Shown: positions 1 to 58,091 of the stretch, piece after piece | How positions within the stretch are numbered: the first letter of the stretch is position 1 | Layout: each line of letters begins with the position of its first letter | Source of the DNA: Nitrospirota bacterium | GTDB lineage: Bacteria > Nitrospirota > Thermodesulfovibrionia > Thermodesulfovibrionales > Dissulfurispiraceae | Reading direction: 5' to 3' | Assembly: GCA_963710375.1 (NCBI GenBank) | Contig: CAVPZX010000005.1 | Location: 160,001 to 224,000 of the forward strand | Length of the DNA stretch: 64,000 nt | Notes under the pieces: generated by a model | What the model was told of the DNA's origin: nothing | What the model saw: the letters and a program-made list of their open reading frames with translations, nothing else | The model's database searches: none | Position numbers and translations under genes: made by a program

Positions 1-830
1 TCCCTGAGGATGAACTTGAGACGGTAAGGAAAAATGAAGTTATTGATACAATGAGAACTATCGGTAAGGAATTATTAGACCTTTCTGCCGGTTATGAAGC
101 AGGCAGATTTTTCAGAGATGGTGTCGCAACCGCTATTGTGGGGAAGCCTAACGTAGGCAAATCATCACTGTTGAACGCCCTTCTCGAAAAGGACCGGGCC
201 ATCGTTACTGAAATGCCCGGGACGACCAGGGACGTAATAGAGGACACGCTGAACATTGAGGGTCTGCCGTTGCGCATTATGGATACTGCCGGTATACGCG
301 AGACACATAATCTTGCCGAAGCAGAGGGAGTAAAGAGGAGCCTGAAGGCTATAGAGGGTGCTGATATCGTTATTGCAGTGCTGGACAGCAGCATGCCCCT
401 TGATAAGGCTGATGAAGAACTGCTTAAGGCGGTTGCTTACAAAAGGACGATTGTCCTCATTAATAAATGTGATATCCGGTCGCCTGATTTCGCTGTTCCC
501 GACAGCGCAACGAATGTTGTTGAGGCATCGGCATTGACTGGAGAGGGTATCAGTGAATTGAAAGATATGATTTATAGCGTGTGTATTTCTTCCGGAGTTC
601 ACGGGGAGACTGAAGTCCCTCTCATTACCAACATCAGACACAAGCATTCACTGGACAGGGCCTCGCAGGCGCTTGCCGAGGCAGTAAACGTACTCGAAAA
701 CGACATTCCACTTGAGATCGTTGCCATGTATGTGCGGGAGGCGCTTGATTGGGTGGGAACAATAATCGGCATTTTTACTACAGAGGATATACTCAATAAA
801 ATATTCAGCGAGTTCTGTGTAGGCAAGTAA
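1..830 (+). CDS. mnmE: tRNA modification GTPase MnmE, 5' end outside window
   Basis: GKPNVGKSS P-loop, GTTRD, DTAG, NKCD and C-terminal FCVGK; frame open from the window start. Confidence 0.97.
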   Translation, partial: PEDELETVRKNEVIDTMRTIGKELLDLSAGYEAGRFFRDGVATAIVGKPNVGKSSLLNALLEKDRAIVTEMPGTTRDVIEDTLNIEGLPLRIMDTAGIRETHNLAEAEGVKRSLKAIEGADIVIAVLDSSMPLDKADEELLKAVAYKRTIVLINKCDIRSPDFAVPDSATNVVEASALTGEGISELKDMIYSVCISSGVHGETEVPLITNIRHKHSLDRASQALAEAVNVLENDIPLEIVAMYVREALDWVGTIIGIFTTEDILNKIFSEFCVGK

Positions 831-938
831 GCAGTAAGCAGCAAAAACGGAAAAGAAAAACAGGCTATGTAAAAAAGAATGGATTCCCACCTACGAGGGA
901 ATCCATTCTTTTTTAAGTCTTTGCTGCCTACTGCCTAT
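826..938. repeat. Heptamer inverted arms (AGTAAGC / GCCTACT) enclosing the terminator
   Basis: agtaagc agtaagc agcaaa ... tttgct gcctact gcctat; left arm contains the mnmE stop. Confidence 0.6.
870..915. terminator. Perfect 19-bp stem hairpin, probable bidirectional terminator; core ATTCCC-N8-GGGAAT
   Basis: TAAAAAAGAATGGATTCCC-acctacga-GGGAATCCATTCTTTTTTA between convergent genes, with A/T tails on both sides. Confidence 0.75.
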
Positions 939-943
939 TTTTT

Positions 944-15147: not shown

Positions 15148-15152
15148 GGACG

Positions 15153-15288
15153 AAAGATGGAAGGTGAGAGCGTGAGAAGTTGTGAAGGTGAGAGTAAAAC
15201 AGAAGTTGAGAAGTTGAGAAGTTGTGAGGTTGGGATTTTGCTCATCTTCGCACCTTCGCACCTTCTCACGCTCTCAACTTCCATCTTT
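15153..15288. repeat. Octamer (GAAGTTGA family) hairpin element at the lptE 5' end
   Basis: aaagatggaaggtgagagcgtgagaag... / ...cttctcacgctctcaacttccatcttt. Confidence 0.9.
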
Positions 15289-16146
15289 TGTTTCTGCTGC
15301 ATTCTTTGTTCCGGCTGCGGGTATACCATTCAAACGAGGGCCAACCTTCCCTTTGAGACCATTTCTATCGGCACGATAGAGAATAAAACATCTGAGCCCA
15401 AACTTCAGGACAGGTGTCACGTGGCATTGGCAGAGACCTTTTCCCAACACGGTTACGAGGTAAGCTCCATTGCCCGCTACAGGCTCCAGGGTGAGATATA
15501 CCGGTTCGAGTTGATCCCTACAACCGAAGTGAACCTCGCTGCGACACAATATCAGATCGTGATGAAGGGGAGCTTTAAACTTGTTGATACGGAAAGCGGC
15601 AAATCGATTCCACTTGGGGCGGACAGCCCGTTTATCACTTATTTCAACGCTAACACCACTGACCCGCTCGAGGAAATTATGACACAAAAAGAGCTCGCGG
15701 AGGCCAGCGCTATGGCAAATCTGGCGCAGACGTTAGTCAGCCTTGTTACTTACAATACTCCCAAAAATTTTGCGAGCCTGCTGTTTAAGCCTGACGATAT
15801 AAAAAATGTGGAGGGCCTTATCGTCAAGCTGAGGGATGCAAAAGACCCGCTCTCGGAATATTTACGGGACCAATTTACTCCGGACCTTCAACGCAAAATA
15901 GATGCCTATAACCAGTTCGATTATTCGGCAAAGGAGCTCAAGACTGCACTGGCCAATGCGTTAAACAGTATAATCCAGAACAAGGACATTTTTGATGAAA
16001 AGCGTTTTGCCCATGTCATGCTCAGCGATGAGACCATGCAGCTTATCAGACAGAATGCGCAAGGCGGTAATCGGGTGAAACTCAACCGGATACTTCTTGA
16101 GGAGGCGTATCCGGACGAACTGCAAAAACCGGCAGGCAATAGGTAA
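15157..16146 (+). CDS. lptE: LptE-like LPS assembly lipoprotein with a repeat-encoded N-terminus and an extra C-terminal domain
   Basis: Lipobox-like CSGC followed by GY; ENKT.EP; position directly upstream of holA. Confidence 0.7.
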   Translation: MEGESVRSCEGESKTEVEKLRSCEVGILLIFAPSHLLTLSTSIFCFCCILCSGCGYTIQTRANLPFETISIGTIENKTSEPKLQDRCHVALAETFSQHGYEVSSIARYRLQGEIYRFELIPTTEVNLAATQYQIVMKGSFKLVDTESGKSIPLGADSPFITYFNANTTDPLEEIMTQKELAEASAMANLAQTLVSLVTYNTPKNFASLLFKPDDIKNVEGLIVKLRDAKDPLSEYLRDQFTPDLQRKIDAYNQFDYSAKELKTALANALNSIIQNKDIFDEKRFAHVMLSDETMQLIRQNAQGGNRVKLNRILLEEAYPDELQKPAGNR

Positions 16147-16156
16147 TGGAAAATAT

Positions 16157-16241
16157 GAAGGTGAGAAGATGGGAAGTTGCGAAGTTGAGCAAACCGGCCT
16201 TCGTAAGTCACACCTTCACACGTTCTCAACTTCTCATCTTC
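16157..16241. repeat. Octamer hairpin element between lptE and holA
   Basis: gaaggtga gaagatgg gaagttgc gaagttga ... caccttc acacgttc tcaacttc tcatcttc. Confidence 0.9.
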
Positions 16242-16250
16242 GGATATTGA

Positions 16251-17153
16251 ATGAGCATAAAGCAATTTCATCAGGAACTTTCCAAGGGGATGCCCTCCCC
16301 GGTGTATCTCTTATACTCATCAGAAGATTTTCTGCTCTATGAGGCTATCTCCGGAATAAAAGAGCAGTGTAGGGATACAGTTGGATTTAATTTTGACGTG
16401 TACGACATTAAGTCGCCTGACGATACGATTCCGGTAGAACAGATTGTGGATATCGTGAACACGATGCCGTTTATATCCGCGCGAAGGATAGTTGTTATCA
16501 ACAACATACAGAAACTTGCCAAAAAGGATGTGCAAAAGATCGAGGCTTACCTGCTTAATCCTGCTGATACTGCGCTTTTGGTAATGCTCCATACAGGTGC
16601 ATCGCCAAAGCTTTTTAGTGCAGCGGCATCAGGAAGCATTAAGACAATTGCTCTTACAGTCCAGGAAAAGGACCTTCACCTGTGGATAAAGGAGCAGGCC
16701 AAACAGAAGAAGGTGCGCCTTACCGACAGCGCGGTCGAATATCTTATTACTATGGCCGGGACTGACCTTGGCATGCTCTCTGCAGAAATAGAAAAGCTTG
16801 CATGTTTTATCAGCGACCGTGTCATTGACGTTGCCGACCTGAAGAGCATCATCTATTCTGGAGTTGAGTATACCGCCTTTGACCTTCTTGATGCGCTTAA
16901 GAGAAAAGATGCGAAGGAGGTATTCAGGATATTTGAGAACGTCACTAAAAATCAGGAACCTCAAATGCTGCTCGGCGCTCTGAATTATTATTATGGACGG
17001 CAAGGGTACGCTTACCAGAAAAAAGATGCATCCGGGCCGGTCCAGACAGTCCGGCTCTTGCATGAGGCGGACTTTGCGATAAAGTCATCGCACAAGTATG
17101 TTATCGAAGATCTGCTTGTTAAGCTGCTTAAAACTCCGAAGATGAGAAGTTGA
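16251..17153 (+). CDS. holA: DNA polymerase III delta subunit
   Basis: PVYLL..E.FL, T.PF....R.V, EIEKL; lptE-holA-rpsT context. Confidence 0.9.
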   Translation: MSIKQFHQELSKGMPSPVYLLYSSEDFLLYEAISGIKEQCRDTVGFNFDVYDIKSPDDTIPVEQIVDIVNTMPFISARRIVVINNIQKLAKKDVQKIEAYLLNPADTALLVMLHTGASPKLFSAAASGSIKTIALTVQEKDLHLWIKEQAKQKKVRLTDSAVEYLITMAGTDLGMLSAEIEKLACFISDRVIDVADLKSIIYSGVEYTAFDLLDALKRKDAKEVFRIFENVTKNQEPQMLLGALNYYYGRQGYAYQKKDASGPVQTVRLLHEADFAIKSSHKYVIEDLLVKLLKTPKMRS

Positions 17154-17205
17154 GAAGATGTGAAGGTGTGATCTCAATTTCCCAACCTCCCAACTTCTCA
17201 CCTTC
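17138..17205. repeat. Octamer hairpin element overlapping the holA and rpsT stop codons
   Basis: gaagatga gaagttga gaagatgt gaaggtgt / tcaatttc ccaacctc ccaacttc tcaccttc. Confidence 0.9.
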
Positions 17206-18713: not shown

Positions 18714-18822
18714 AACCACAGAGACACGGAGACACAGAGAAATCAAATGATGGCTAATTAAAGAAAAGACTTTTTCTTTCTCTACTTGGAGCATATCTCT
18801 GTGCCTCTGTGTCTCTGTGGTT
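18714..18822. repeat. Octamer (CACAGAGA) hairpin element, copy 1
   Basis: aaccacagagacacggagacacagaga ... tctctgtgcctctgtgtctctgtggtt. Confidence 0.9.
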
Positions 18823-22419: not shown

Positions 22420-23580
<1,161 letters not shown>

Positions 23581-23589: not shown

Positions 23590-23690
23590 GTGAAACGTGA
23601 AAAGTGAAAGGTGAAAAGTCATAATACTGGCATCTTTATTCGCGACTCACCATTTCCCCTTCCTTTCACCTTTCACGATTCACCTTTCAC
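23590..23690. repeat. Heptamer (GTGAAAA) hairpin element between tgt and nrdJ
   Basis: gtgaaac gtgaaaa gtgaaag gtgaaaa ... ctttcac ctttcac gattcac ctttcac. Confidence 0.85.
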
Positions 23691-23789
23691 GTCCTTTATG
23701 TCCCCGATGTTTATTAACAAACCATTAACACGCATTTCACAGTAAAACAAGTTTTAAATCAGGAGATTGCAAAAATAGCAATTTTTTCC

Positions 23790-31413: not shown

Positions 31414-31498
31414 GGGCGATAGGTCATAGGTAACAGGTGGCAGGAAAACTTATAACAGTTTATTCAATAACCAAATAACCAATGAACAATGACCTATA
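31414..31498. repeat. Degenerate heptamer inverted arms upstream of gspG
   Basis: ggcgata ggtcata ggtaaca ggtggca ... caataac caatgaa caatgac ctat; ATAGGTCAT/ATGACCTAT is a perfect inverse pair. Confidence 0.55.
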
Positions 31499-31523
31499 AG
31501 CAGTATTGTATAGGGGTGAGACG

Positions 31524-34811: not shown

Positions 34812-35227
34812 AGAGGGCAAAGGGCGAAGGGCAAAGGGCAAAGGGTTTTACGCTCATAGAATTACTCATGGTTATCACCATTATCGGGATGATGTTCTCC
34901 GTGAGCGTTCCGATTTCCTATTCCATTTACCAGCGCTATCAGGCATCCCTCAAAGCGGAAAAGGTCTTGACCTTTGTCAGCTCCCTGAAGTTGGAGGCCT
35001 TTTTGTACGGACGGGATAGGCTTATCGAGTCAAAGGAGGGCAGGATGCTCATTGACGGGACTGATCCGGGAGGGTTTAATGATATGTTTATCCAGGTAGA
35101 CAACCCCATCACGTTTTACAGGACGGGTACTACTTCCGGGGGTCAGATCAAGGTGTATGCTGATAGCAATACCTTTCTTATAGTAATACAGGCCCCTTTC
35201 GGAGGACTCGTGATGAAATCGGCATAA
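34808..35227 (+). CDS. gspH: Minor pseudopilin (GspH-like)
   Basis: G|FTLIE; operon order. Confidence 0.75.
   Translation: MKRAKGEGQRAKGFTLIELLMVITIIGMMFSVSVPISYSIYQRYQASLKAEKVLTFVSSLKLEAFLYGRDRLIESKEGRMLIDGTDPGGFNDMFIQVDNPITFYRTGTTSGGQIKVYADSNTFLIVIQAPFGGLVMKSA
34814..34845. repeat. Heptamer (AGGGCAA) array encoding the GspH leader
   Basis: agggcaa agggcga agggcaa agggcaa aggg. Confidence 0.9.
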
Positions 35228-35228: not shown

Positions 35229-35681
35229 ATGGCAAAGGGCAAAGGGCAAAGGGCAAAGGGTAACGAGAGAGGTTTTCTGATCCTTGAGGTCATGATCGCG
35301 AGCCTGATTCTGACCGCCGGTGTCGCAGCGACCATGTATCTTTTCAGGCTCGGATTTCAGTATCTGGAACGGGCGAATGATTCCAACCTGATCTCGTCCA
35401 AACTGCCTCAGGTCATCAACTTCCTGAAGGTGCTCGATATGGAAGCACAGAGCGGGACCGAAGATATGGGTGATGATGTTATAATGCATTGGGACGCCAA
35501 GCTAATCGAGACGGTGCGGCCTGTACATGATACACCTGATGGCAAGGAGTCCCATCCCTTTAATCTGTACCTTTATAAGGTGAACATACGCCTCGATTAT
35601 AAAAATCTGAACAGGGACTACAAAATAAATATATTCAGGAGTTCCAGGCTTAATGAGACTCATTTGCCGCGGGAATTTTAG
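35229..35681 (+). CDS. gspI: Minor pseudopilin (GspI-like)
   Basis: G|FLILE; operon order. Confidence 0.7.
   Translation: MAKGKGQRAKGNERGFLILEVMIASLILTAGVAATMYLFRLGFQYLERANDSNLISSKLPQVINFLKVLDMEAQSGTEDMGDDVIMHWDAKLIETVRPVHDTPDGKESHPFNLYLYKVNIRLDYKNLNRDYKINIFRSSRLNETHLPREF
35231..35260. repeat. Heptamer (GGGCAAA) array encoding the GspI leader
   Basis: ggcaaa gggcaaa gggcaaa gggcaaa ggg. Confidence 0.9.
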
Positions 35682-37231: not shown

Positions 37232-38547
37232 TGGAGGGTTGGATGTTTAGGAGATTGGAAGGTTGGAAGCTCGGCAATTTGGCAGCTCGAAAGCTCGGTG
37301 GTTTGGCTAACCCTCTAACCCGCAAGTTCTCCAATCTTCTAATTGGTTACTGGCATAAAGGGGGGGTGGAAATTTACCGGCTTTCCGCCCCAAAAAGTCA
37401 AAGGCTTTCCGGGGGCGCCGGGCCCGCGGAAAGCAAGATCACTCTGTTTGCATCCGGAGGTCTCGACACACTTAAACCTGTCAAAGCATTCGGCAAAATA
37501 GTATTGATTGTGGGGAGAGACCTTTTTCTCCACACAAGGAAAAAGTTTCCCCCGGCATCGTTAGATGATTTGAAGAAAGCTGTAAACCTTGAAATCGGCG
37601 AGTTGTTCCCACTGAAGAGTCCCTCCTTTTTCCTCAATGTTTTTGAGAGGACCGAAGCTTACACCCTGGCTGATATATGGGCGTGGGACAGTTCTGGATA
37701 TGACAACCTGAAGCGTGTGCTCCCCTTTACCTATGTATTGCCGGAAGACATGGCCTTTATATCAGGGGAACCCGAAATCAGTGTTTTGAGCGGCTCTGCC
37801 GGCGACGCCGGTGTCTCCCATTTGCTGGCTCATTCAAAAGAAGGATTTCTCGGCATGTCGTCATTCAGAGGCCGGGTCAGCCGGAGCCACATAGAGAAGC
37901 TTCTCAAGGCGATCAGCAGTCATGCGGAAGAGGTTAAGAGGGTGAACCTTTACGGGGGAGCAGAAGCTGTTACCGCTATTAATGACCTTGGATTCCCGGT
38001 CGTGAAAAAGGAGACCAGGGGGTATCCCGCCTGCCTTGAAAATTTGAGCAGGCTCGATCTTAAACAGTTCAGTGTCCGGACAGAACCGGCTTTTATGGAA
38101 TACATTGATGTCGGCATCAGGTCCGTAATATACCTTTTTGTTGCGTATGGCATATCCCTTATTGTTGCAGGCAGGCATTATGATGCTGCAATCAGTGAAG
38201 TGAAGATAAAGACTGCAAGGCTGACTACGAGCATGTCTGCCGTAATCGTGGGGCAGAAGAAAGATTACGAGGAGGCTGCGGACGAGATGAAGGAAAAGCT
38301 GAAGGGTTGGCGTCCGCCGTTGCCTGTAATGGAGGCGTTGGCCAAAAATCTGCCTGACAAGAGCTATGTGACAAGAATGGTACTTAATGAGACCACACTG
38401 GAGTTGACACTTGCATCGAATGACCCCCTGGCGGTTGTGAAAGCCGTGGGGAGAACTGACGGAGTAAAAACAGTGAAATTGAAGGGCTCGCCTTCGAAAA
38501 ATGATAAAGGGCTTTATACCTTCTATCTTACGGTGGAACTGAAATGA
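37231..38547 (+). CDS. GspL/PilN-like assembly protein
   Basis: Cytoplasmic domain, one TM, coiled coil, LP..SYV; operon order. Confidence 0.65.
   Translation: MEGWMFRRLEGWKLGNLAARKLGGLANPLTRKFSNLLIGYWHKGGVEIYRLSAPKSQRLSGGAGPAESKITLFASGGLDTLKPVKAFGKIVLIVGRDLFLHTRKKFPPASLDDLKKAVNLEIGELFPLKSPSFFLNVFERTEAYTLADIWAWDSSGYDNLKRVLPFTYVLPEDMAFISGEPEISVLSGSAGDAGVSHLLAHSKEGFLGMSSFRGRVSRSHIEKLLKAISSHAEEVKRVNLYGGAEAVTAINDLGFPVVKKETRGYPACLENLSRLDLKQFSVRTEPAFMEYIDVGIRSVIYLFVAYGISLIVAGRHYDAAISEVKIKTARLTTSMSAVIVGQKKDYEEAADEMKEKLKGWRPPLPVMEALAKNLPDKSYVTRMVLNETTLELTLASNDPLAVVKAVGRTDGVKTVKLKGSPSKNDKGLYTFYLTVELK
37233..37341. repeat. Degenerate octamer (GGAAGCTC/GGAAGGTT) arms at the 5' end of the gspL-like gene
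   Basis: ggagggtt ggatgttt aggagatt ggaaggtt ggaagctc ggcaattt ggcagctc gaaagctc ... aaccctct..ccaatcttct. Confidence 0.6.
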
Positions 38548-38551: not shown

Positions 38552-38654
38552 AGAAGTTGAGAAGTTGCGAAGGTGAGAAGATGAGAGAAAGGATACTGCG
38601 TGAAAATGTGGGTTTGGGGTCTCAACTTCACAACTTCACAATTTCTCAACTTCT
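38552..38654. repeat. Octamer hairpin element between the gspL-like and gspM-like genes
   Basis: gaagttga gaagttgc gaaggtga gaagatga ... tcaacttc acaacttc acaatttc tcaacttc. Confidence 0.92.
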
Positions 38655-42391: not shown

Positions 42392-42433
42392 AGAAGGGGC
42401 AATAGGCTATGGGTGATAGGAAATAAAAAAACG

Positions 42434-42541
42434 AACCACAGAGGCACTGAGACACAGAGAAAGCAAATGATAGCGAAAAAGGAAAAGACGTTTTCTTTCT
42501 GTATTATGGAGCATACCTCTGTGCCTCTGTGTCTCTGTGGT
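42434..42541. repeat. Octamer (CACAGAGA) hairpin element, copy 2
   Basis: Arms and internal loop both align with 18714-18822. Confidence 0.9.
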
Positions 42542-42804: not shown

Positions 42805-43016
42805 TAGTGCATCTTTAAAGCTTTAGGCAGAGGCGGTAAATGTTTAAAATGAAATTAATCATCGGTTGTTATTTAGGGTTAGAGTAAATGAAATTCAGTA
42901 ATCAAGGAGGTGATGAGAAAAGCCGATCCTTGGGAGAGTAAGGAAGCAGGAAGTGCGAACACTTTGCGGTTATCATCATTATTATTTATTATTTATCAAA
43001 AAAAGGAGGATTGAAA

Positions 43017-47918: not shown

Positions 47919-48014
47919 GAAGTTGAGAAATTGAGAAGATGTGAAGATGAGAAAAAGAAATGTAAGCCTGATTTGTTGTCGCGCACCTTCTCACCTTCTC
48001 AGCTTCCCATCTTC
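47919..48014. repeat. Octamer hairpin element directly upstream of the four-helix-bundle gene
   Basis: gaagttga gaaattga gaagatgt gaagatga ... gcaccttc tcaccttc tcagcttc ccatcttc. Confidence 0.92.
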
Positions 48015-48028: not shown

Positions 48029-48433
48029 GTGATGGTGGGCAATAGTCAGAAAATAAAAAGTGTTAGGGATTTGGATGTTTATAAGATGGCTTTCAATGCG
48101 GCAATGGACATTTGGCAGATAACAAACGGTTTTCCCAAAGAAGAAAAATATTCTCTTGTAGATCAAATAAGGCGTTCTTCAAGATCTGTATGTTCAAATC
48201 TTGCAGAAGCGTGGCGAAAGAGGCGATATAAAGCCGTGTTCAAGAATAAGTTGACTGATGCTATGCAAGAGGCTTCTGAAACGCAGACATGGCTGGAGTT
48301 CAGTGTTGCTTGTAAATATGTTGATCAAAATAAATTTGATGACTTTGATCAAAAATATGAACATATATTAGCTATGTTGAATAATATGGACTTGAAAGCT
48401 GAATCCTTCTGCTTCTCAACTTCTGATAAATAA
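48029..48433 (+). CDS. Four helix bundle protein (23S rRNA IVP / TIGR02436-like)
   Basis: DL.VY, FP.EE.YSL.DQIRRSSRSV..N.AE.W, E..ET.TWL. Confidence 0.93.
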   Translation: MMVGNSQKIKSVRDLDVYKMAFNAAMDIWQITNGFPKEEKYSLVDQIRRSSRSVCSNLAEAWRKRRYKAVFKNKLTDAMQEASETQTWLEFSVACKYVDQNKFDDFDQKYEHILAMLNNMDLKAESFCFSTSDK

Positions 48434-49638
48434 TGTTTAGGGACGTATATAGAGGTAAGCAAGTATTAATCACTGGTCACACGGGATTCAAAGGCTCTTG
48501 GCTTGCCCTGTGGCTCAGAGAGTTAGGAGCGAATATAATCGGTTATTCCCTTGATCCACCTACAAACCCCAATCATTTTGATTTGCTAGCCTCTTCTCAG
48601 GTTCTCACCTTCTCATCTTCTCAACTTCCCAACTTCATCTCTATTTTCGGAGATATACGGGATGTAAAGAAGCTGAATCAGACCTTTCAGAACTATAAGC
48701 CTGATATAGTCTTCCACCTCGCTGCACAACCTCTCGTCAGGTATTCATATAAACATCCGCTCGATACATTTGAGACAAATGTGATAGGGACAATAAATGT
48801 TCTTGAAGCTTGCAGACAGACTGAATCAGTCAGGGCAGTAGTAAATATAACGAGCGACAAGTGCTATGAAAACAAAGAATGGGTATGGGGCTATCGTGAG
48901 AGTGACCCGTTTGGCGGTTACGACCCCTACAGCGCATCAAAAAGTTGCGCAGAGCTTGTGACTAACTGTTACAGGCGCTCTTTCTTTATAACTGAAACTG
49001 AGAAGTTGAGAAGGTGTGAAGGTGAGAGTAAAGCCGAAGGACTCACAACTTCTCAACTTCTCAACTTCACAACTTCAGTCCTTTTAGCCAGCGCAAGAGC
49101 GGGCAATGTCATAGGCGGCGGAGATTGGGCAGCGGACAGATTGATTCCCGACATTATGAGGGCGGTCAGCCGGAATAAGAAGGTTGTTATCAGAAATCCC
49201 AAGTCAACCCGTCCCTGGCAGCATGTGCTGGAGCCGTTGTCAGGTTATCTGGCGCTTGGGCAGAAGCTCTTGGAAGGGAAATCGGAATTTGCCGATGGGT
49301 GGAATTTTGGGCCTGATGATGAAAGCAACATATGTGTTGAAGAAGTTGCAGAAAAGATGACCAGCTTCTGGCATAAAATTGGTTACCAACGCAAACCATT
49401 TAAACATCCAAGCCTCCGGCCATCCGACCCTCATGAGGCTGGTCTGTTAAAACTTGACTGCTCGAAAGCCCATTCAAGGCTTGAGTGGAAACCTGTCTGG
49501 GATATTAAGAAAACGCTTGTAATGACCGCTCAATGGTATAAAGAGTTTTACGAACGTGATGGAATAATGAGTCAGAAGGATTTGGATGAGTATATTCTGA
49601 ATGCGAAGGAAAAAGGTTTGCGTTGGGCAGTTGATTGA
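48433..49638 (+). CDS. rfbG: CDP-glucose 4,6-dehydratase with in-frame repeat inserts
   Basis: TGHTGFKGSWL, HLAAQPLV, YSASK, RAGNVIGGGDW, RPWQHVLEP. Confidence 0.96.
   Translation: MFRDVYRGKQVLITGHTGFKGSWLALWLRELGANIIGYSLDPPTNPNHFDLLASSQVLTFSSSQLPNFISIFGDIRDVKKLNQTFQNYKPDIVFHLAAQPLVRYSYKHPLDTFETNVIGTINVLEACRQTESVRAVVNITSDKCYENKEWVWGYRESDPFGGYDPYSASKSCAELVTNCYRRSFFITETEKLRRCEGESKAEGLTTSQLLNFTTSVLLASARAGNVIGGGDWAADRLIPDIMRAVSRNKKVVIRNPKSTRPWQHVLEPLSGYLALGQKLLEGKSEFADGWNFGPDDESNICVEEVAEKMTSFWHKIGYQRKPFKHPSLRPSDPHEAGLLKLDCSKAHSRLEWKPVWDIKKTLVMTAQWYKEFYERDGIMSQKDLDEYILNAKEKGLRWAVD
48591..48636. repeat. Single octamer arm in frame in rfbG (SSQVLTFSSSQLPNF)
   Basis: tcaggttc tcaccttc tcatcttc tcaacttc ccaacttc. 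Confidence 0.9.
48991..49079. repeat. Octamer hairpin in frame in rfbG (TETEKLRRCEGE..TTSQLLNFTTS)
   Basis: actgaaactgagaagttgagaaggtgtgaaggtgagagt / actcacaacttctcaacttctcaacttcacaacttcagt. Confidence 0.95.
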
Positions 49639-49662
49639 GCAGGTTTGTCGGAAGACTCCTAC

Positions 49663-51108
49663 ATGGAAAGAAGAGAACAACTAAAACAGGAAATATTTGA
49701 GAGAATAAGGGCATTTTATCAGCTTGTGCATGAGACATCCCACAATGCAGAGTTTGTTGCAGGCAAAAGTCGCATAAACTATGCAGGCCGGGTATTTGAT
49801 GAAGAAGAGATGATTAATCTTGTCGATAGTTCCCTTGATTTCTGGCTTACAACAGGCAAATATGCCGAAAGGTTTGAAAAAGAATTTGCAGATTTCCTTG
49901 GAGTGAAATATTGCTCTCTTGTCAATTCAGGGTCTTCAGCTAATCTCCTCGCGTTTATGGCGTTAACATCTCCGAAGCTCGGTGATAGAAGCATTCAGAG
50001 GGGCAATGAGGTCATAACAGTAGCAGCAGGTTTCCCAACCACAGTCGCTCCCATCATTCAGTATGGCGCTGTGCCGGTATTTGTTGATGTTACGCTGCCG
50101 GCATACAACATAGATTGTTCGCAGCTCGAAAATGCACTATCAGATAAAACAAAGGCTGTAATGGTCGCGCATACCCTCGGCAATCCCTTCGATATCCGGA
50201 CGGTAAAAACGTTCTGCGATAAACATAATCTCTGGCTCATCGAGGATAACTGCGACGCTCTTGGCAGTAAATACCGAAGGTGGGAAGTTGAGAAGGTGAG
50301 AAGTTGTGAACGTGAGAAGGCAGGCCCAACTTCACAACTTCACAACTTCCCACCTTCGGAGCTTTACGGCTACACCGGGACTTTCGGGCATATTGGAACG
50401 TCGAGTTTTTATCCGCCCCATCATATGACTATGGGAGAAGGCGGCGCTGTTTATACGAACGATATTCAGCTCAAAGGGATAATAGATTCTTTCCGTGACT
50501 GGGGCAGGGACTGCTGGTGTGTGTCGGGTAAAGACGATACATGCAAAAAACGCTTTAAATGGCAGCTCGGAGAACTTCCTTACGGATATGATCACAAATA
50601 TATCTATTCCCATTTCGGGTATAACTTAAAGGTTACCGACATGCAGGCGGCTATAGGCTGTGCGCAACTCGAAAAGCTGCCCTTTTTTATTGAAGCAAGA
50701 AAGAAAAACTGGAGTCTTCTGAGGGACGGGCTGCATGACCTTTCAGATAAGTTTATCCTGCCTGAGCCTACTGCGAATTCAGAGCCATCCTGGTTTGGGT
50801 TCCTGTTGACTGTGAAGGAGAGCGCGGGTTTTACGAGGGATGAGATAGTGAATTATCTTGAATCAAATAACATCCAGACACGTATGCTCTTTGCAGGAAA
50901 TATACTGAAGCATCCCTGCTTCGATGAAATGAGAAAAACCGGCCACGGTTTCCGTGTCATTAGGGACTTACCGGTAACTGACCGCATAATGCGCGACAGT
51001 TTTTGGGTTGGGGTCTATCCGGGGATGAAAGAAGAGGCGATCGAATATGTCATGCAAAAGATAAAAGAGTATGCAAGACATGAACAATCGATTCCCGGTT
51101 TAGGGTAA
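49663..51108 (+). CDS. rfbH: CDP-4-keto-6-deoxyglucose 3-dehydrase (RfbH/DdhC) with an in-frame repeat insert
   Basis: NSGSSANL, EDNCDALG, SFYPPHH.T.GEGG (His in place of the PLP Lys), RDCWC..G.D.TC. Confidence 0.95.
   Translation: MERREQLKQEIFERIRAFYQLVHETSHNAEFVAGKSRINYAGRVFDEEEMINLVDSSLDFWLTTGKYAERFEKEFADFLGVKYCSLVNSGSSANLLAFMALTSPKLGDRSIQRGNEVITVAAGFPTTVAPIIQYGAVPVFVDVTLPAYNIDCSQLENALSDKTKAVMVAHTLGNPFDIRTVKTFCDKHNLWLIEDNCDALGSKYRRWEVEKVRSCEREKAGPTSQLHNFPPSELYGYTGTFGHIGTSSFYPPHHMTMGEGGAVYTNDIQLKGIIDSFRDWGRDCWCVSGKDDTCKKRFKWQLGELPYGYDHKYIYSHFGYNLKVTDMQAAIGCAQLEKLPFFIEARKKNWSLLRDGLHDLSDKFILPEPTANSEPSWFGFLLTVKESAGFTRDEIVNYLESNNIQTRMLFAGNILKHPCFDEMRKTGHGFRVIRDLPVTDRIMRDSFWVGVYPGMKEEAIEYVMQKIKEYARHEQSIPGLG
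50274..50359. repeat. Octamer hairpin in frame in rfbH
   Basis: ccgaaggtgggaagttg... / ...caacttcccaccttcgg; outer 17 bp perfectly complementary. Confidence 0.95.
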
Positions 51109-53199
51109 TATTTCATTCAGCAATTGCCGGGTTTTTTGGTCATCCGGCTTTATCTTTAACCTTGTCATCAATTGAATGCGCGCATTTTCTATAATATCCG
51201 GTCTCAGGCGCAGGGCAGTTTCGAATTCATTTTTGGCCTTGTCAAGTCTGTCGCTGTCGTAATAAACAAGGCCAAGATTAAAATGTGCTTCTGCGTAATC
51301 GGGCGCAAGTTTAATGGCAATCAGATACTGCTCAATAGATTTGTCAGGCATGTTGATGGCATGATAGGCAATGCCGAGATTATTATGTGCCTCAGCATAA
51401 TCAGGCTTGAGTTTAATGGCAATGATATATTGCTCAATAGCATTGTCAAGCATGTTGCGACTTTTATAAAAATTACCAAGTCTGGCATGTGCATTTGCGT
51501 AACGGGGGAATCTTTTAACTGTATCTTCCCACATTTTTTTGCTGTCTCCATATAGATTGTTCTGCAAATGAGCTGCGACTGACAGAATGCTTATAATAAG
51601 GGCGAGCGTCACTAGTATCACATTGCCGGCTTTCTGTGAACGAATTTTTTCTTTCAGCAGAAATACCCCCGTAACTGTGCAAATGATTACCCCGACCGAG
51701 GGCAGATACATTCGATACGTTTCAATAAGCCTCGGCGTAGGTATAATGCTCGATTCAACTGAAAGGGTGATAAAGAACCACAATATACCGAAACCCATCA
51801 AACGAAAAGCAGGACTAAGGGCAGAGGACTGAGAGGCGAGGACTGAGGACTGAGGACTGAGAGACGAGGACTGAGAGGCGAGGACTGAGGACTGAGGACT
51901 GAGAGACGAGGACTGAGAGGCGAGGACTGAGTTTTCGTCTTCGCGCTTTGCCCTCAGTCCTTTGCCCTTAGTCCTCAGTCCTGGACCCTCTTCCTTTGGC
52001 CCTTTCCACTCAGTCCTCAGTCCTTCGCCCTCAGTCCTCAGTCCTCGCCTCTCTTTTTTCTGCACTAAATAAATCCCCAGTCCAAATAGCGCTGAGAGAA
52101 ACACAAATGAAACGGATACCTGCGGTTGAAAAAAAGACTTAAACACAGGGTACTCATAATTGAGTTCCAGGTTTGCCGGGAAAAACAGCATTCGCAGGTA
52201 AGTGACAATGACCCTGAACTGGGTGAAAAAATACTCTCCCCGCGAGTAGTCCCAGGTGAATCCGGCCATATATGAGCCCGGGTCAATAAGGCTGGGATTA
52301 ATCAGTTGTGTGCCGCGTACTTCGGTCACTGTCGGCATGCTCATAATAGTCAGAGGTATGATGCAAAGTGAAAGCAATAATGGAGCAAGAACGAGCATCC
52401 TCTTCTTAATGCCGCCATTAAAAAAACAAAACTCGTACAACGTTATCACAAAGGGCAGAGTAAACGCATTCTCCTTTGTTTTCATTGCCAGGACCGCTGA
52501 AAGAAGGGATATGGCGTACATAGTCCGGCGCCGGGCTTTATGATGGTCAGGAGCCTCCAATCTGAACTTAATATATGCTGTGAGGGAAAGGAGATAGAAA
52601 AAAGCGGCGAGAGAGGCATAACGTTGCATGACATACGTAACCGCCGCTGTCTGCAGCGGGTGGACGGCAAACAGAGCGGCGGAGAAGAAGGCAATCACTG
52701 CCGGATTGCCTGAACTTGAGAAATTGAGAACTTGTGAAGGTGTGCCCTTTGCCCTATGCCCTATGCCTTTCATGTAAGGTGTTCTGAATGTCAATAGAAC
52801 AAGCAAATAAACCAGGATTGTATTGGCGATATGAATGGCAATATTGACAATATGGTAGCCGGTCACCGATAAACCGTTTATACGGTAGTTGAGCGCAAAG
52901 GTGAGATGCGAGATGTAGCGGGATATGAAAAAACGGTAATTCTCAAACCCTTGAGCTGTTGAGGGGTGAAGGAAATAATTAAGGTCCTTGATAATAGGCT
53001 CGTTAACAATATGCATCTCTTCATCCCACTGAAATGGGACATTCAAGGCATTGGAGTAAATGATCAGAATAAGCAGAGACAGACAAGCGATATGCACAAA
53101 GGAGTTATATGTCAATGACAGCGGACTGAACGATGCATGTGCAGGGGGAAGGTCATTGTGACGGATCAGCTTATTTGTTTTCTTACCCTTGTTTTTCAT
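51100..53199 (-). CDS. TMTC-like GT-C + TPR protein, paralog 2
   Basis: Same motifs as 26326-28050; TPRs. Confidence 0.75.
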   Translation of the reverse strand: MKNKGKKTNKLIRHNDLPPAHASFSPLSLTYNSFVHIACLSLLILIIYSNALNVPFQWDEEMHIVNEPIIKDLNYFLHPSTAQGFENYRFFISRYISHLTFALNYRINGLSVTGYHIVNIAIHIANTILVYLLVLLTFRTPYMKGIGHRAKGTPSQVLNFSSSGNPAVIAFFSAALFAVHPLQTAAVTYVMQRYASLAAFFYLLSLTAYIKFRLEAPDHHKARRRTMYAISLLSAVLAMKTKENAFTLPFVITLYEFCFFNGGIKKRMLVLAPLLLSLCIIPLTIMSMPTVTEVRGTQLINPSLIDPGSYMAGFTWDYSRGEYFFTQFRVIVTYLRMLFFPANLELNYEYPVFKSFFQPQVSVSFVFLSALFGLGIYLVQKKERRGLRTEGEGLRTEWKGPKEEGPGLRTKGKGLRAKREDENSVLASQSSSLSPQSSVLASQSSSLSPQSSVLASQSSALSPAFRLMGFGILWFFITLSVESSIIPTPRLIETYRMYLPSVGVIICTVTGVFLLKEKIRSQKAGNVILVTLALIISILSVAAHLQNNLYGDSKKMWEDTVKRFPRYANAHARLGNFYKSRNMLDNAIEQYIIAIKLKPDYAEAHNNLGIAYHAINMPDKSIEQYLIAIKLAPDYAEAHFNLGLVYYDSDRLDKAKNEFETALRLRPDIIENARIQLMTRLKIKPDDQKTRQLLNEILP
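51811..52053. repeat. Heptamer (GGACTGA) hairpin in frame in paralog 2
   Basis: (ggactga)n ... (tcagtcc)n; encodes GLRTE.. and SPQSSVL.. Confidence 0.95.
52712..52767. repeat. Composite octamer + heptamer insert in frame in paralog 2
   Basis: gaacttga gaaattga gaacttgt gaaggtgt followed by gcccttt gccctat gccctat gcc. Confidence 0.85.
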
Positions 53200-54285: not shown

Positions 54286-54556
54286 AGGACTGAGGGCAGA
54301 GGACTGAGAGGCGAGGACTGAGGACTGAGGACTGAGTGCCAAGGACTGAGAGACGAGGGCAGAGGACTGAGGACTGAGAGACAAGGACTGAGAGGCGAGG
54401 ACTGAGGACTGAGTGTCAAGGACTGAGGACTGAGCAGAGAGGACTGAGTTTTGGTCTTCGATCTTTGCACTCAATCCTCTGCCCTCAGTCCTCAGTCCTG
54501 GATCCTCTTTCCTTTGGCCCTTTCCACTCAGTCCTCAGTCCTCTGTCCTCAGTCCT
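54286..54556. repeat. Heptamer (GGACTGA) hairpin in paralog 3
   Basis: (ggactga)n ... (tcagtcc)n. Confidence 0.95.
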
Positions 54557-55036
54557 TGTTTTTTTCTCGCTCCACAGCACTAAATAAATGCCCAGCCCGA
54601 AAAGCGCGGCAAGAAACATAAACGAAAAGATCACCTGGGGGTAAAAGAAAGATCTATAAATAGGATAGTCATAGTCGACATTCTGTCCTGCGGGGAAAAA
54701 CAGCAGCCGCATATATCTCACAATTACTGAGAACTCCGTCATCAGGTATTGCCATGGCGTCGTCCTTGTCTGCACTGTTATCTTGCTCGCATCCGACAAT
54801 ACTTTCCCCAACGGCTGGCTCACATTCAGCAAGCTCAAAGGAATGATGACCACTGTTGCCAGCAGCGGCAAGGCCCATAGAGCCCTCCTGAGCAGATTGC
54901 CTCTGCCGAAGAACACCAGTTCGTACAACACAACAATAAACGGCAGTGTAAAGGCTATCTCCTTTGTCATCATCGCAAGCACAGCCGAAACAATAGAAAT
55001 CCCATAATAAAAATATGGCATGTATTTTCGTTTTTC

Positions 55037-55310
55037 CCGGCTACCGGCCACCGGCCCCTGGCCACTGTCTTTTGCTTCTTGCCCTCCGCCCTCAGTCCTC
55101 AGTCCTTGGTCCTCTGCCCTCAGTCCTCGCCTCTCAGTCCTCAGTCCTTGGTCCTCTGCCCTCAGTCCTCTGCTCTCAGTCCTCAGTCCTTGGTCCTCCG
55201 CCCTCAGTCCTCGCCTCTCAGTCCTCAGTCCTTGGTCCTCTGCCCTCAGTCCTCGCCTCTCAGTCCTCAGTCCTCTGCCCTCAGTCCTTGTTTTATTACC
55301 CTCAGTCCTT
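55037..55310. repeat. Heptamer array with a 42-bp higher-order unit, in frame in paralog 3
   Basis: ctcagtcctcagtccttggtcctctgccctcagtcctcgcct repeated about 4 times (GLRTERRGLRAEDQ), next to ccggcta ccggcca ccggccc ctggcca. Confidence 0.95.
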
Positions 55311-55454
55311 GACTTTATATATGTCACTAATGAAAGGAGATAAAAAAATGAAGCGAGGGACGCAAGCCTCTGCACTATATAAGTGACCGCCTGAGTTTGG
55401 ATAGGATGCACCGCAAACAAGACAGCAGAGAAGAAGGCGATCAGCCCGGAATCG

Positions 55455-55520
55455 CTGAGTACTAAAGACTGAGGACTTAGGACTGAGGGCATAGGACTGA
55501 GGACTGAGGACTGAGGACTC
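55455..55520. repeat. Heptamer arm in frame in paralog 3
   Basis: Encodes SPQSSVLSPMPSVLSPQSLVLS. Confidence 0.9.
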
Positions 55521-55841
55521 ATGGCCGGTGTTCTGAATGTAAATAGCACAAATAAATAAACCAGCATGGAGTTAGCAATATGAATTGCAAGATTGACTAT
55601 ATGGTAGCCGGTCACATTTGAACCACCCAAGCTGTAGTTCAGGGAAAATGTCAGATACCCGATGAATCGTCTAGAAAAATGTTCATACCCTGTGGAACTG
55701 AACAGAAAATTTCCGATATGACGCACTATACTGTTATCAATTATGTTGAATTCATCGTCAAATACAAACGGCGCATGAAAAGTATTAGAATAACAAATCA
55801 GGCATAATAGAGCTATAATGCCGGCATGTAAGAGCTGGGAA

Positions 55842-58091
55842 TTATGATTTTGATTTGGAAATTTCATTCAGCAACTGTCGGACATTTTGGTCGTTAGGTT
55901 TTATCCTTAATATCGTTGTCAATTCCCTGCGTGCCTTTTCTTTCTGTCCCCTCTCATAATAGAGTTCTCCAAGATTGGAATGCGCCTCTATATAATCGGG
56001 CTTCAGTTTAATGGCAATCAGATAATATTCTATGGCCTTGTCGGGCATTTTCTGGTCTTCATAGATTACGCCAAGATTATTATACGCCTCTGCGCAGTCA
56101 GGCTTTAGTTTAACAGCAATCAGATACTCTTTTAAAGCCCTTCCACGCATGCTGCGGGACTGATAAAACACGCCACCCAGATCAAGATGGGCCTCCACAT
56201 AATCAGGCCTCAGTTCTACGGCAGTCATAAACTCTTTTATAGCTTTCTCGGGCATTTTACGATCTTTATATATATTGCCAAGGTTATAATGTGCCTCAGG
56301 TAAGTCCGGATTAAGCTTGGAAGCAATCATAAACTGCTCAATCGCCTTGTCAGGCATATTACGGTCTCGGTAGATAACCCCGAGGTTATTGTATTCCTCT
56401 GCAGAATCAGGTTTCAGCCCAATGGCAATCCGGTACTGCTCTATGGCTTCATCGAACTTTTTTTGAGACTGATAGAGGCGACCAAGATTATAATGCGCCC
56501 TTTCCTTGGCAGGTGATTTTGCCACGACGTCTTTCCACAGTCTTATACTGTCTCCCCACACTTCGTTCCGCAGATACGTAGCGACCGACAAAACTCCTAT
56601 AGCAAGGGCCAGCATCAAGATTATTACCCTGCCGTACCTGGGCGAACGCACCTTTTCTATTAACAAAAAGGCCCCTGTAACTGTACAAATAATCATTCCT
56701 ATTGAAGGCAGATAAGCACGGTGCTCGTAAATTACATCAGTGATAGGTATTATGCTTGACTCGACCGAAAGAGTGATAAAAAACCACAATATACCAAAAC
56801 CCATCAAACGAAAAGCAGGACTGAGAGGCGAGGACTGAGAGGCGAGGACTGAGGACTGAGCAGTTAGGACTGAGTTTTGGTCTTCGCGCTTTGCACTCAG
56901 TCCTTTGACCTCAGTCCTCAGTCCTGGACCCTCTTCCTTTGGCCCTTTCCACTCAGTCCTCAGTCCTCTGTCCTCAGTCCTTGCTTTATTACCCTCAGTC
57001 CTCAGTCCTTGGTCCTTCGTCTTCAGCACTAAATAAATGCCCAGCCCGAAAAGCGTCACCAGAAACAGAAGCGACAGCATCACCTGGGGATAGAAGAAAG
57101 ATCTATACACCGGATAGTCATAATCGAGGTTCTGCCCTGCAGGGAAAAACAGCAGCCGCACATACGTCACGATCACAGTGAACTCTGTTATCAGATACTG
57201 CCACCGCGTCATGCTTGTTCCCGCCGCAGTCACCTGATTCACATCCGACAACACCTTCCCCAACTGTTGGCCCACATTCAGCATGCTCAGTGGAATGATG
57301 ACCACTGTTGCCAGCAGCGGTAAGGCCCATAGCGTCCTCTTAATCAGATTGCCTCTGCCGAAAAACACCAACTCGTAAATCACAATGATAAACGGCAGCG
57401 TAAAGGCTATCTCCTTTGTCTTCATCGCCAGCACCGCAGAGATAATAGAGATGCTGTAGAAGAAGAGATACCGGAAGTTGCCCTTTGCCCCGCCTGAGGC
57501 GGGCCCTCTGCCCTCTGCTATTAGCCTGAACCGAACATAAAAGTACAACGAGGCAACATAAAACAAAGCTGCCAAAGACGCAAGCCGCTGCACTATGTAT
57601 GTCACTGCCTCGGTTTGGATAGGATGCACCACAAATAACGCGGCAGAAAAAAAGGCAATCAGATTAGAATTTCTGAGGACCGAGGACTGAGGACTGAGAG
57701 GCAAGGACTGAGGACTGAGAGACGAGGACTGAGGGTTCATTAACGGAGTCCTGAATGTAAGCACCACCAATCCATAAACCAGAAGCGCACAGGCCAGATG
57801 TATGGCAAGATTTACTACATGGTAGCCGGTCACATCAAGGCCGCCCAAGCGGTAGTTCAGGGCGAATGTCAGAAACCCTATAAAACGGCGGGGATTATTT
57901 TCATATCCTTTGGAGCTGAAGATAAAATTGCCGATATCATGGACTACCCTGTTATCCCTTATAGAGTATTCGTCGTCAAATATAAACGGCACATGGAAAC
58001 TGTTGGAATAGACGATTATTCCTGCCAAAATTATCAGGAAGGGATAAAAAAAATGATGGGCCGTTGCTGAATTCTTTGCCTTCCGAAACAT
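55842..58091 (-). CDS. TMTC-like GT-C + TPR protein, paralog 4
   Basis: FDD, YH..N..IH, HP.QTEAV.Y..QR, EHR.YLP, multiple TPRs. Confidence 0.78.
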   Translation of the reverse strand: MFRKAKNSATAHHFFYPFLIILAGIIVYSNSFHVPFIFDDEYSIRDNRVVHDIGNFIFSSKGYENNPRRFIGFLTFALNYRLGGLDVTGYHVVNLAIHLACALLVYGLVVLTFRTPLMNPQSSSLSPQSLPLSPQSSVLRNSNLIAFFSAALFVVHPIQTEAVTYIVQRLASLAALFYVASLYFYVRFRLIAEGRGPASGGAKGNFRYLFFYSISIISAVLAMKTKEIAFTLPFIIVIYELVFFGRGNLIKRTLWALPLLATVVIIPLSMLNVGQQLGKVLSDVNQVTAAGTSMTRWQYLITEFTVIVTYVRLLFFPAGQNLDYDYPVYRSFFYPQVMLSLLFLVTLFGLGIYLVLKTKDQGLRTEGNKARTEDRGLRTEWKGPKEEGPGLRTEVKGLSAKREDQNSVLTAQSSVLASQSSPLSPAFRLMGFGILWFFITLSVESSIIPITDVIYEHRAYLPSIGMIICTVTGAFLLIEKVRSPRYGRVIILMLALAIGVLSVATYLRNEVWGDSIRLWKDVVAKSPAKERAHYNLGRLYQSQKKFDEAIEQYRIAIGLKPDSAEEYNNLGVIYRDRNMPDKAIEQFMIASKLNPDLPEAHYNLGNIYKDRKMPEKAIKEFMTAVELRPDYVEAHLDLGGVFYQSRSMRGRALKEYLIAVKLKPDCAEAYNNLGVIYEDQKMPDKAIEYYLIAIKLKPDYIEAHSNLGELYYERGQKEKARRELTTILRIKPNDQNVRQLLNEISKSKS
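56817..57030. repeat. Heptamer (GGACTGA) hairpin in frame in paralog 4
   Basis: Same site and loop as 51811-52053. Confidence 0.93.
57673..57734. repeat. Heptamer arm in frame in paralog 4
   Basis: Encodes PQSSSLSPQSLPLSPQSSVL. Confidence 0.9.

Follow-up and report, generated by a model that had tools for sequence, protein, structure and literature searches.

Tandem-word hairpins in a Nitrospirota genome: site memory with family swaps, and a link to IVP genes

What kind of process places hairpins of one design, built from short tandem words of unrelated sequence, at locus after locus of a single bacterial genome? The question is raised by the window, a stretch of 64,000 nucleotides from a Nitrospirota genome (G000), for which the original prediction counted about 25 short-period loci between 826 and 57734. 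About 27 are found, with the units as it had named them. Gene models are open reading frame calls made in the present analysis. The loci at gene junctions, with the state of the site in relatives, are:

826..935, unstranded: AGTAAGC-family heptamer hairpin around a plain bidirectional terminator-like stem, convergent mnmE/PPIase junction; another family in G003, the plain stem alone in G005 and G009
15150..15291, unstranded: GAAGTTGA-family octamer hairpin, DsbD-like/lipoprotein junction; heptamer family in G002 and G003
16131..16241, unstranded: octamer hairpin with a remnant heptamer-family purine arm ahead of it; heptamer hairpins in G002 and G005
17138..17205, unstranded: octamer hairpin at the 3' end of holA; G002 has a hexamer hairpin, G003 a different octamer family
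18714..18822, unstranded: CACAGAGA-family hairpin; its loop matches 42436-42540, a whole-element copy
23590..23691, unstranded: GTGAAAA-family hairpin between divergent tgt and ribonucleotide reductase genes; different heptamer family in G002, with near-identical flanks
31419..31497, unstranded: decayed GGTCATA-family hairpin between galE and gspG
34814..34845, + strand: lone GGGCAAA purine arm that encodes the charged leader of a pseudopilin; G002 and G003 have an octamer family
35231..35263, + strand: second GGGCAAA arm, within the leader of the pseudopilin that follows; G002 and G003 again have an octamer family
37232..37340, unstranded: decayed octamer hairpin at the junction of gspK and the next gene; full IVP cassette with heptamer arms in G001
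38552..38654, unstranded: octamer hairpin at a secretion-operon junction
42397..42540, unstranded: remnant heptamer purine arm, then a CACAGAGA hairpin (nested), 3' of the secretin gene
47919..48014, unstranded: octamer hairpin immediately 5' of the IVP gene; purine arm alone in congeners

The remaining loci lie within genes:

22998..23034, - strand: lone in-frame octamer arm in tgt; full hairpin in G002, none in G009 or G005
26879..26960, - strand: decayed in-frame GGACTGA-family hairpin in TPR membrane gene 26326-28050
48593..48636, + strand: lone in-frame pyrimidine octamer arm in rfbG; G002 has another family and G009 is empty
48999..49077, + strand: in-frame octamer hairpin in rfbG; other octamer family in G003
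50276..50357, + strand: in-frame octamer hairpin in a gene for a DegT-family aminotransferase; G003 has another octamer family
51811..52046, - strand: in-frame GGACTGA hairpin in TPR membrane gene 51100-53199
52712..52767, - strand: chimeric in-frame locus, an octamer arm abutting a heptamer arm of a different family
54286..54556, - strand: GGACTGA hairpin in TPR gene 53218-55867 (a single gene when the extra base at 54508 is taken as erroneous)
55037..55311, - strand: long lone in-frame GGACTGA arm, next to a small arm of another heptamer
55455..55519, - strand: lone in-frame GGACTGA arm, with 55083-55311 one of three pyrimidine-first neighbour pairs
56817..57021, - strand: in-frame GGACTGA hairpin in TPR gene 55842-58091
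57673..57734, - strand: lone in-frame GGACTGA arm in TPR gene 55842-58091

In-gene copies preserve the reading frame. Four paralogous TPR genes contain all seven GGACTGA loci (26879 and 51811-57734), mostly at shared sites, so that these loci are not independent. At 54485 a gene appears to be split, probably through an error of assembly, since two runs each have a contig that lacks the extra base at 54508; splicing and recoding at the 54485 hairpin were rejected on this ground. Across the genome, the hosts of in-gene copies (identities from a scan of 20 of the 30 listed genes) include tgt, prmC, nadD, nadE, kdsB, rimO, hypF and acetolactate synthase. In-gene copies thus extend beyond surface and glycan genes, and the original prediction overstated its link to these. 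Frame-shifting, locally generated arrays of the kind that define phase-variable simple sequence repeats were not found among 963 ortholog pairs, 28 of which have in-frame arrays, or 19 adjacent-ORF cases, 2 of which have arrays nearby (both tandem full-length paralogues).

Genome-wide, 290 arrays of period 7 were found (2 in shuffled sequence), 57 of period 8 (0 shuffled) and about 121-136 of period 6 (1 shuffled), with 2-14 each for periods 4, 5, 9, 10 and 11. More than 200 hairpins of 6-, 7- or 8-letter words are present. An element measures about 100 bases and has two opposed arms, each of four to five words (median 4.2-4.4, alike for the three periods), drawn from a limited vocabulary of 17 clusters. 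A multi-family system of heptamers and octamers, as predicted, is thus confirmed; the hexamer family, among the largest in the genome, was overlooked because none is detected in the 64-kb window. The purine arm, said to be always 5' in well-formed hairpins, is mostly so genome-wide: for 198 of 240 purine arms the complement lies downstream, at up to 250 nt, and for 6 it lies upstream, while 185 of 228 pyrimidine arms have theirs upstream and 6 downstream; the figure for random windows is 11 of 2,340. Just three pyrimidine-first neighbour pairs occur in the whole genome. Since purine-first order is identical when read from either strand, it is uninformative on transcription.

Among 13 window loci tested for folding, 11 have z ≤ -3.4; the two weak folds, 31412-31500 (z -2.0) and 37228-37340 (z +0.2), are both decayed. 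The hairpins are no assembly artefact, as several are spanned by independent contigs (two runs, two studies) with 0-3 differences; the long GGACTGA arrays lie outside the spanned set and their copy numbers are provisional. In the window, a tRNA is the sole Rfam match. No terminal motif common to all families was found beyond an A-rich outer flank.

The original prediction had missed a gene that lies among these loci:

48029..48433, + strand: four-helix-bundle gene (PF05635 / TIGR02436; IVP) between rfbF and rfbG; its 3' end is a remnant pyrimidine arm

This gene is present at the rfbF/rfbG junction in G001, G002 and G003 and absent there in G009, G015, G016 and G030. It is one of six PF05635 genes above cut-off in the genome, and all six have arrays on their flanks, no two of them of one word family. 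Each thus has the layout of an S23p/IVP cassette, with the ORF between the arms; the other hairpins lack this ORF and are likely derivatives of such cassettes. One gene-less hairpin (G000:C5:326777-326848) retains the first IVP codons where congeners have the entire cassette.

Word length is predicted by protein clade across phyla, at 60-70% identity. Among homologues of the octamer IVP, 61 of 76 flanks have period 8 upstream of the gene and 57 of 79 downstream; among those of the hexamer IVP, period 6 is found in 60 of 77 and 68 of 75, respectively. With the heptamer IVP as query, period 7 is found upstream in 7 of 7 homologues of at least 60% identity, and period 8 in 5 of 5 at 48-54%. The closer two IVP proteins are in sequence, the more alike are their words (Mantel rho 0.54 and 0.33, against null values of at most 0.11 and 0.10), an agreement also expected from co-inheritance as a cassette. 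The IVP proteins are under purifying selection (dN/dS 0.05-0.19 in 8 of 10 pairs, 2 misaligned pairs being excluded), no catalytic domain was found in them, and both solved homologues are five-chain entries. Several G000 families are without a matching IVP gene, as is, in G003, the commonest family in the 1.34 Mb of that genome examined. A GxxExxY gene, which is nuclease-like, is absent from G000; 2 of 9 congeners have one each, both with word arms. Among the papers searched by title and abstract, which leave out most subscription papers, none ties an IVP clade to its word array or reports that families swap.

Other partners were considered. G000 (98.8% complete) has no match to the reverse transcriptase family RVT_1 (PF00078), which speaks against a reverse transcriptase as partner and, together with the position of the window gene between rfbF and rfbG, against its identity as a DGR accessory gene (Avd); of 27 homologues in the genus, the only one that is probably a DGR-type Avd (by eye) lacks arrays. 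The sole Y1 transposase gene (PF01797) has flanks without clear word-array arms (by eye), so a RAYT partner was likewise rejected, and with it a REP-REPIN-RAYT identity.

The sites of the hairpins are remembered between genomes, and the families at them often are not. Junctions filled in G000 are also filled in a congener in 52 of 61 cases, compared with 49 of 343 elsewhere (odds ratio 35, p 6e-28), although a targeting-free model in which about 30% of junctions are tolerant and near saturation fits this two-by-two table equally well. The corresponding counts are 9 of 11 and 3 of 23 in G002, and 6 of 19 and 5 of 124 in G005; none of 6 sites is filled in G009 (14 junctions compared in all). Occupancy is not regional (20 of 140 near, 29 of 203 far). 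Empty orthologous sites, which were to be looked for, do occur in congeners: the tgt site, for example, is empty in G009 and G005. About half of the co-occupied junctions hold another family in the congener: the 5-mer cosine is below 0.3 at 35 of 52, of which 7 are drifted words of one superfamily (by eye), and the period differs at 19 of 52. At such divergence, insertion junctions can be placed only approximately. Site memory with family and period swaps, which extends to a helix of 23S rRNA, is new here.

Both 23S genes of G000 carry a hexamer hairpin, with a predicted long stem, at about nt 272-404. In the 19 genomes of the family that were read, this helix is short in 7 and bears an insertion in 12; among congeners it is empty or holds a 6-, 7- or 8-mer hairpin, and it differs between the two rRNA operons of one congener. 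An insertion in an rRNA helix that is short in relatives, with complementary termini and a stable stem, is characteristic of an rRNA intervening sequence (IVS); the two 23S copies have these properties, the window loci lying outside rRNA. The outer stem shows compensatory changes among genera (by eye). The genome has an RNase III gene, and RNase III probably excises the 23S copies.

How new copies arise is suggested by loops and arms. Across 302 hairpins, an arm complements its own partner barely better than it does family-mates (0.690 and 0.675; p 0.046), which argues against local inversion; the own-partner advantage is clear in a few heterogeneous families. A paralogue was found for 51 of 172 loops (2 when shuffled) and none was detectable for 121, and 51 of 53 paralogous loop pairs are of the same family (20% expected). 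One pair of identical loops belongs to the two rRNA operons and is no transposed pair. Where the family has changed, the loop is not retained: at 10 swapped sites the loops score no better than the null, a result on which the rewriting of arms around a resident loop was rejected and which favours the spread of whole copies over in-place writing. One shared process, as originally proposed, is thus supported over independent slippage by the near-equal complementarity of partners and family-mates, the recurring whole hairpins and the tie to IVP clades; of its two suggested forms, 'writes or spreads', the spreading fits better. The 51 loops resemble MITEs in being multi-copy whole elements with unrelated flanks; that identity was rejected for want of target-site duplications. 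In 336 hairpins, direct repeats shared by the two outer flanks reach the same length as in shuffled pairs, a comparison weakened by old copies and imprecise ends, and none was seen in paralogue alignments. There is modest support for nesting. An other-family purine arm lies on the left flank of 19 of 336 hairpins and a pyrimidine arm on that of 2 (about 5 expected); the right-flank counts are 8 and 3, and other-family arms stand on both sides in 3 of 336, with 1 in the opposite order.

We consider it fairly probable that the hairpins are mobile, gene-less relatives of IVP/GxxExxY cassettes, which spread at the DNA level and replace one another at re-used sites. Hairpin copies would be inserted as DNA without target duplication, preferentially within an earlier hairpin or next to one; the arms of the earlier hairpin would then decay, leaving site memory with family swaps. 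A pentameric IVP may recognise its own word array and promote copying, the chemistry being supplied by host recombination or repair enzymes or by the GxxExxY nuclease of such cassettes. Copies would survive where tolerated, in gaps between stop codon and ribosome-binding site, leader peptides, surface loops and the rRNA helix, whose copies RNase III would probably remove from the RNA. More tentatively, and with doubt prevailing, IVP pentamers could be word-specific nucleic-acid readers, each clade recognising a 6-, 7- or 8-base word of its own with about one word per subunit, that home hairpins with or without a gene into others, rival families evicting each other at fixed sites in operons, proteins and rRNA. 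If true, such elements would be mobile without a transposase and governed by a protein-repeat code, a class of their own that is new, and they would be the source of the unexplained heptamer repeats of bacteria.

The hairpins might instead be RNA elements selected by the host, for RNase III processing or as stabilising or terminating stems, the junction needing a hairpin of whatever word and IVP acting as an RNA-binding regulator. We regard this as unlikely. It accords with the 85% site retention, the covarying outer stem of the 23S helix and the RNase III gene, the enzyme that excises the heptamer-bearing Coxiella IVS (PMC4990558). The purine arm also begins -30 to +20 nt from the upstream stop at 142 of 167 co-directional junctions, and the first ATG follows the hairpin at 141 of 151, but these positions result partly from the shortness of the junctions. 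On the transcribed strand, however, G·U pairs are not preferred over A·C (315 vs 296; p 0.47), the sense strand is the better folder in 80 of 157, and both orientations occur, at random with respect to transcription (9 to 10 in 19 independent pairs). Moreover, full hairpins stand in frame in nadD, prmC, rimO and rfbG, where cleavage would inactivate the message, and most copies are dispensable in congeners, as the G009 and G005 counts show.

Quite unlikely, in our judgement, is fragile-site repair, in which breaks at a hairpin are mended by ectopic conversion from another and the IVP genes are passengers, with no factor encoded by the element. It covers site memory, whole-element replacement, random orientation and the lack of target duplications, as well as families without a cognate gene and the surplus, at distances up to 2 kb, of neighbours that belong to one family (40 of 98; 20% shuffled), and leaves unaccounted for the clade-specific word length across phyla, the purifying selection on IVP and the steady four to five words per arm. 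Independent slippage, with a second arm made by local template switching, is largely refuted and very improbable: variable arm lengths, some long arrays and the slight own-partner advantage fit it, but the shared vocabulary, paralogous loops, a change of period at a single site in which the two arms still match and the IVP-clade tie do not.

With the relation to IVP cassettes as the preferred reading, known systems can be compared. Rickettsia palindromic elements are in-frame hairpin insertions in housekeeping proteins and cyanobacterial STRRs are heptamer tandem arrays; to our knowledge neither these nor the cyanobacterial small dispersed repeats have multi-family word arms, a cognate cargo gene or swaps at orthologous sites. 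The original prediction had set the Rickettsia elements and STRRs aside as not matching and had missed the closest analogue, the rRNA IVS. REP/REPIN-RAYT systems have a gene between inverted repeats, gene-less doublets in intergenic space and a protein clade that matches the repeat family; here, by contrast, the arms are tandem short words rather than single palindromes and the linked gene is not an HUH transposase.

Heptamer repeats are over-represented, without explanation, in many bacterial genomes, and the inverted GGGAATC pairs of Xanthomonas and Nostoc, read as G-quadruplex formers, are like the present hairpins mostly of four units, intergenic, often convergent and variable between close species; in the available text they differ in having one word family per genome and are not linked to a gene family, swaps or rRNA (PMC4692102). 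The TAACTGA repeats of Beggiatoaceae, whose transfer mechanism is described as unknown, share short heptamer sets just 5' of start codons and a patchy distribution across phyla, but are direct and almost never inverted, and the main text has no four-helix or intervening-sequence proteins (PMC4679880). In Coxiella burnetii and Leptospira, 23S IVSs carry an S23p/23S_rRNA_IVP ORF of no known function, with tandem heptamers upstream of it in the RNase III-excised Coxiella IVS (PMC4990558). The present system shares with them complementary arms around a four-helix-bundle ORF and a hairpin within both 23S genes; it differs from these accounts in its more than 200 gene-less copies outside rRNA, many families, three periods and same-site replacement, and its rRNA copy is gene-less, near the 5' end rather than in helix 45, and only putatively excised. 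Heptamer repeats and S23p/IVP proteins are joined in one system by this genome, where the coexistence of three periods with six protein clades makes a direct cross-wise binding test possible. The fixed-site swaps, that in the rRNA helix included, point to an undescribed homing or replacement process, by which housekeeping proteins also gain peptide loops.

The window lies on one of nine contigs (C5) of a 3.19-Mb genome (G000) and contains housekeeping genes, a type II secretion operon, rfbF–rfbG-type sugar genes and paralogues of a TPR membrane protein; gene names without a cited family match are our reading of the translations. Tandem arrays of short words were recovered where the original prediction had placed them, and the genome as a whole holds 290 of period 7 and 57 of period 8, versus 2 and 0 after local shuffling. 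The periodicity scan also returned 136 period-6 arrays (1 after local shuffling). Once arrays were merged and hexamers filtered, 468 arms were left. The purine-rich arm is 5′, as had been claimed: 198 of 240 purine arms have their complement downstream and 6 upstream, and pyrimidine arms have it upstream in 185 of 228 cases and downstream in 6 (random windows, 11/2,340). This purine-first order reads identically on either strand. The hairpins (n = 231) have a median stem of 39 bp and a median loop of 34 nt, and at each of the three periods (6, 7 and 8) an arm has a median of 4.2–4.4 words. Several are covered by contigs of runs X2 and X3 with 0–3 differences, which argues against assembly artefacts there, but the long arrays at 51811–57021 are unbridged. 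A surplus base at window 54508, which breaks the gene at 54485, is missing from contigs of both runs and is probably a one-base assembly error in a TPR membrane-protein gene. The four TPR paralogues (window 26326–28050 and 51100–58091) are membrane proteins with C-terminal TPR repeats and adjoin glycosyltransferase genes; their Pfam matches are TPRs only, and by eye we take them to be TMTC-type protein glycosyltransferase-like.

The gene at window 48029–48433, overlooked in the original prediction, encodes a four-helix-bundle protein (PF05635, TIGR02436; here IVP), the solved relatives of which, 2RLD and 2GSC, each have five chains. IVP genes are associated with word arrays: all six above cut-off in the genome are flanked by arrays, each of its own distinct family, usually with a purine arm on the upstream side and a pyrimidine arm downstream (the gene at C5:269654 has purine arms only, within the flank examined). 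When 27 homologues from the genus were placed in a tree, members of a supported clade had a word family in common; a DGR Avd-like homologue, recognized by eye, is without arrays. Among 80 homologues of the window IVP from many phyla, period 8 is found upstream in 61 of 76 and downstream in 57 of 79 flanks of sufficient length to score; for 80 metagenomic homologues of a hexamer-clade IVP, period 6 is found in 60 of 77 and 68 of 75 such flanks. Upstream of 12 homologues of a heptamer-clade IVP, the seven at 60% identity or above have period 7 and the five at 48–54% period 8. Word similarity rises with IVP protein identity, a trend that is no proof of binding because co-inheritance alone yields it. 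IVP dN/dS is 0.05–0.19 in 8 pairs (2 misaligned pairs left out). In congener G002, an Avd-like gene (L075, G002:C5:1870–2175) is followed by an apparent DGR template repeat, with no word arrays. GxxExxY genes (PF13366) flanked by word arms occur in two congeners; one (L238, G003:C2:1592980–1593330) lies between rfbG and the aminotransferase gene, with duplicated hairpins from an additional word family on either side, and the corresponding window junction (49638–49645) is empty.

Cassettes, in which word arms enclose an IVP gene, and gene-less hairpins share sites. Both flanks of 13 of the 22 cassettes in relatives map to one junction of our genome, nine junctions in total, of which three hold a cassette, three a gene-less hairpin and three are empty. 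The gene-less hairpin at C5:326777 still has arms of the cassette's family together with the opening codons of the IVP gene, and reads as an internal deletion of a cassette. At window 37232 and C5:328251, the hairpin family differs from that of the relative's cassette. In both 23S genes of the genome, one helix (near nt 272–404) contains a hexamer hairpin that lacks a gene.

Form of this 23S helix in congeners
G001: short
G005, G007: hexamer
G002: octamer
G006: decayed
G003: octamer in one operon, heptamer in the other

The rest of the 23S gene is nearly identical across these congeners, and the hexamer and heptamer forms have a common outer stem. Across 19 genomes of the family, the helix has an insertion in 12 and none in 7, with no ORF at this helix in any of them. 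The 23S copies connect gene-less hairpins directly to rRNA intervening sequences (IVSs). A further hexamer hairpin lies in the spacer upstream of a 23S gene (G000:C2:687129–687197), and one 23S gene of G003 (L343, G003:C1:3914–6804), strongly unlike its other two, is probably contamination. Systems for comparison include REP/RAYT, RPE, STRR and Avd. Three more each match part of the present system: the S23p-bearing IVS of Coxiella with its heptamers (PMC4990558), the inverted pairs of heptamers in Xanthomonas (PMC4692102) and the Beggiatoaceae repeats (PMC4679880).

We consider it reasonably probable that these are DNA-level mobile hairpins: they come from IVS-type cassettes and would favour older hairpins as insertion sites, and the cognate IVP pentamer is the likely specificity factor. 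The data show the association with IVP genes, the derivation, the copying of hairpins, their replacement and their frame-keeping; binding, targeting and chemistry we infer. Counting against this reading, some word families have no current cognate gene, most loops are unique and we know of no enzyme activity for IVP. Congener DNA compared amounted to 1.34 Mb for G003 (of 4.2), 0.48 Mb for G005, 0.12 Mb for G002 and 0.035 Mb for G009. At 404 junctions orthologous with G003 (amino-acid identity 88%), G003 is occupied at 52 of 61 that are occupied in our genome versus 49 of 343 others, some junctions scored as empty carrying sub-threshold hairpins. G005 and G002 agree with this pattern, and shuffled junctions gave 0/404. 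G009 has no occupied site at the 14 junctions compared. Proximity to an occupied site does not increase the occupancy rate. A model without targeting, in which about 30% of junctions are tolerant and near-saturated, also accounts for the G003 occupancies.

One family replaces another at these sites. Of the 52 shared with G003, 35 fall under a 5-mer cosine of 0.3, with 7 of these judged by eye to be drifted variants within one superfamily, and at 19 the period differs. Swapped sites do not retain the loop. Hairpins within genes, which keep the reading frame, behave similarly: in rfbG, tgt and the aminotransferase gene, congeners show a different family, a lone arm or nothing at all. On the left flank, newer hairpins are bordered by an older arm of a different family at a rate above chance (19 versus 2 of 336, about 5 expected); on the right the excess is weak (8 versus 3). 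Heptamer cluster 23 shows a genome-wide vocabulary shift, its third letter being mostly C in our genome and T in G003, orthologous sites included.

Hairpins are also copied whole. Among 172 loops of at least 22 nt, 51 (among them those of the two rRNA operons and of three TPR gene paralogues) have a paralogue elsewhere, versus 2 when shuffled, nearly always of the same family. Copies lie either way relative to transcription (9 versus 10) and the hairpins show no G·U preference; that the host selects them as RNA stems seems doubtful. The match of an arm to its own partner barely exceeds that to the remaining arms of its family (0.690 versus 0.675; 302 hairpins, P = 0.046), and arms are therefore not local mirror copies. 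The target duplications looked for around hairpins were not found. Conversion driven by repair, without a dedicated factor, would suit the families lacking a cognate gene, and we hold it somewhat less plausible still. Aligned copies have arms and loop in common and unlike flanks. As the origin of the word arrays, slippage is highly improbable.

Other features of the window include a secreted 526-residue Ala/Gly/Ser/Thr-rich protein, possibly an S-layer protein, encoded directly after the type II secretion operon (43011–44591; no Pfam match); an in-frame 27-nt tandem duplication with no relation to the word families (39594–39650); and two neighbouring dCMP-deaminase-family genes (28419–29512). 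A palindromic element roughly 200 nt long and without periodicity (1915–2140), of another type than the word hairpins, has a copy near G000:C2:434983; it adjoins a decayed word hairpin, and the same junction in G002, G003 and G005 holds word hairpins.
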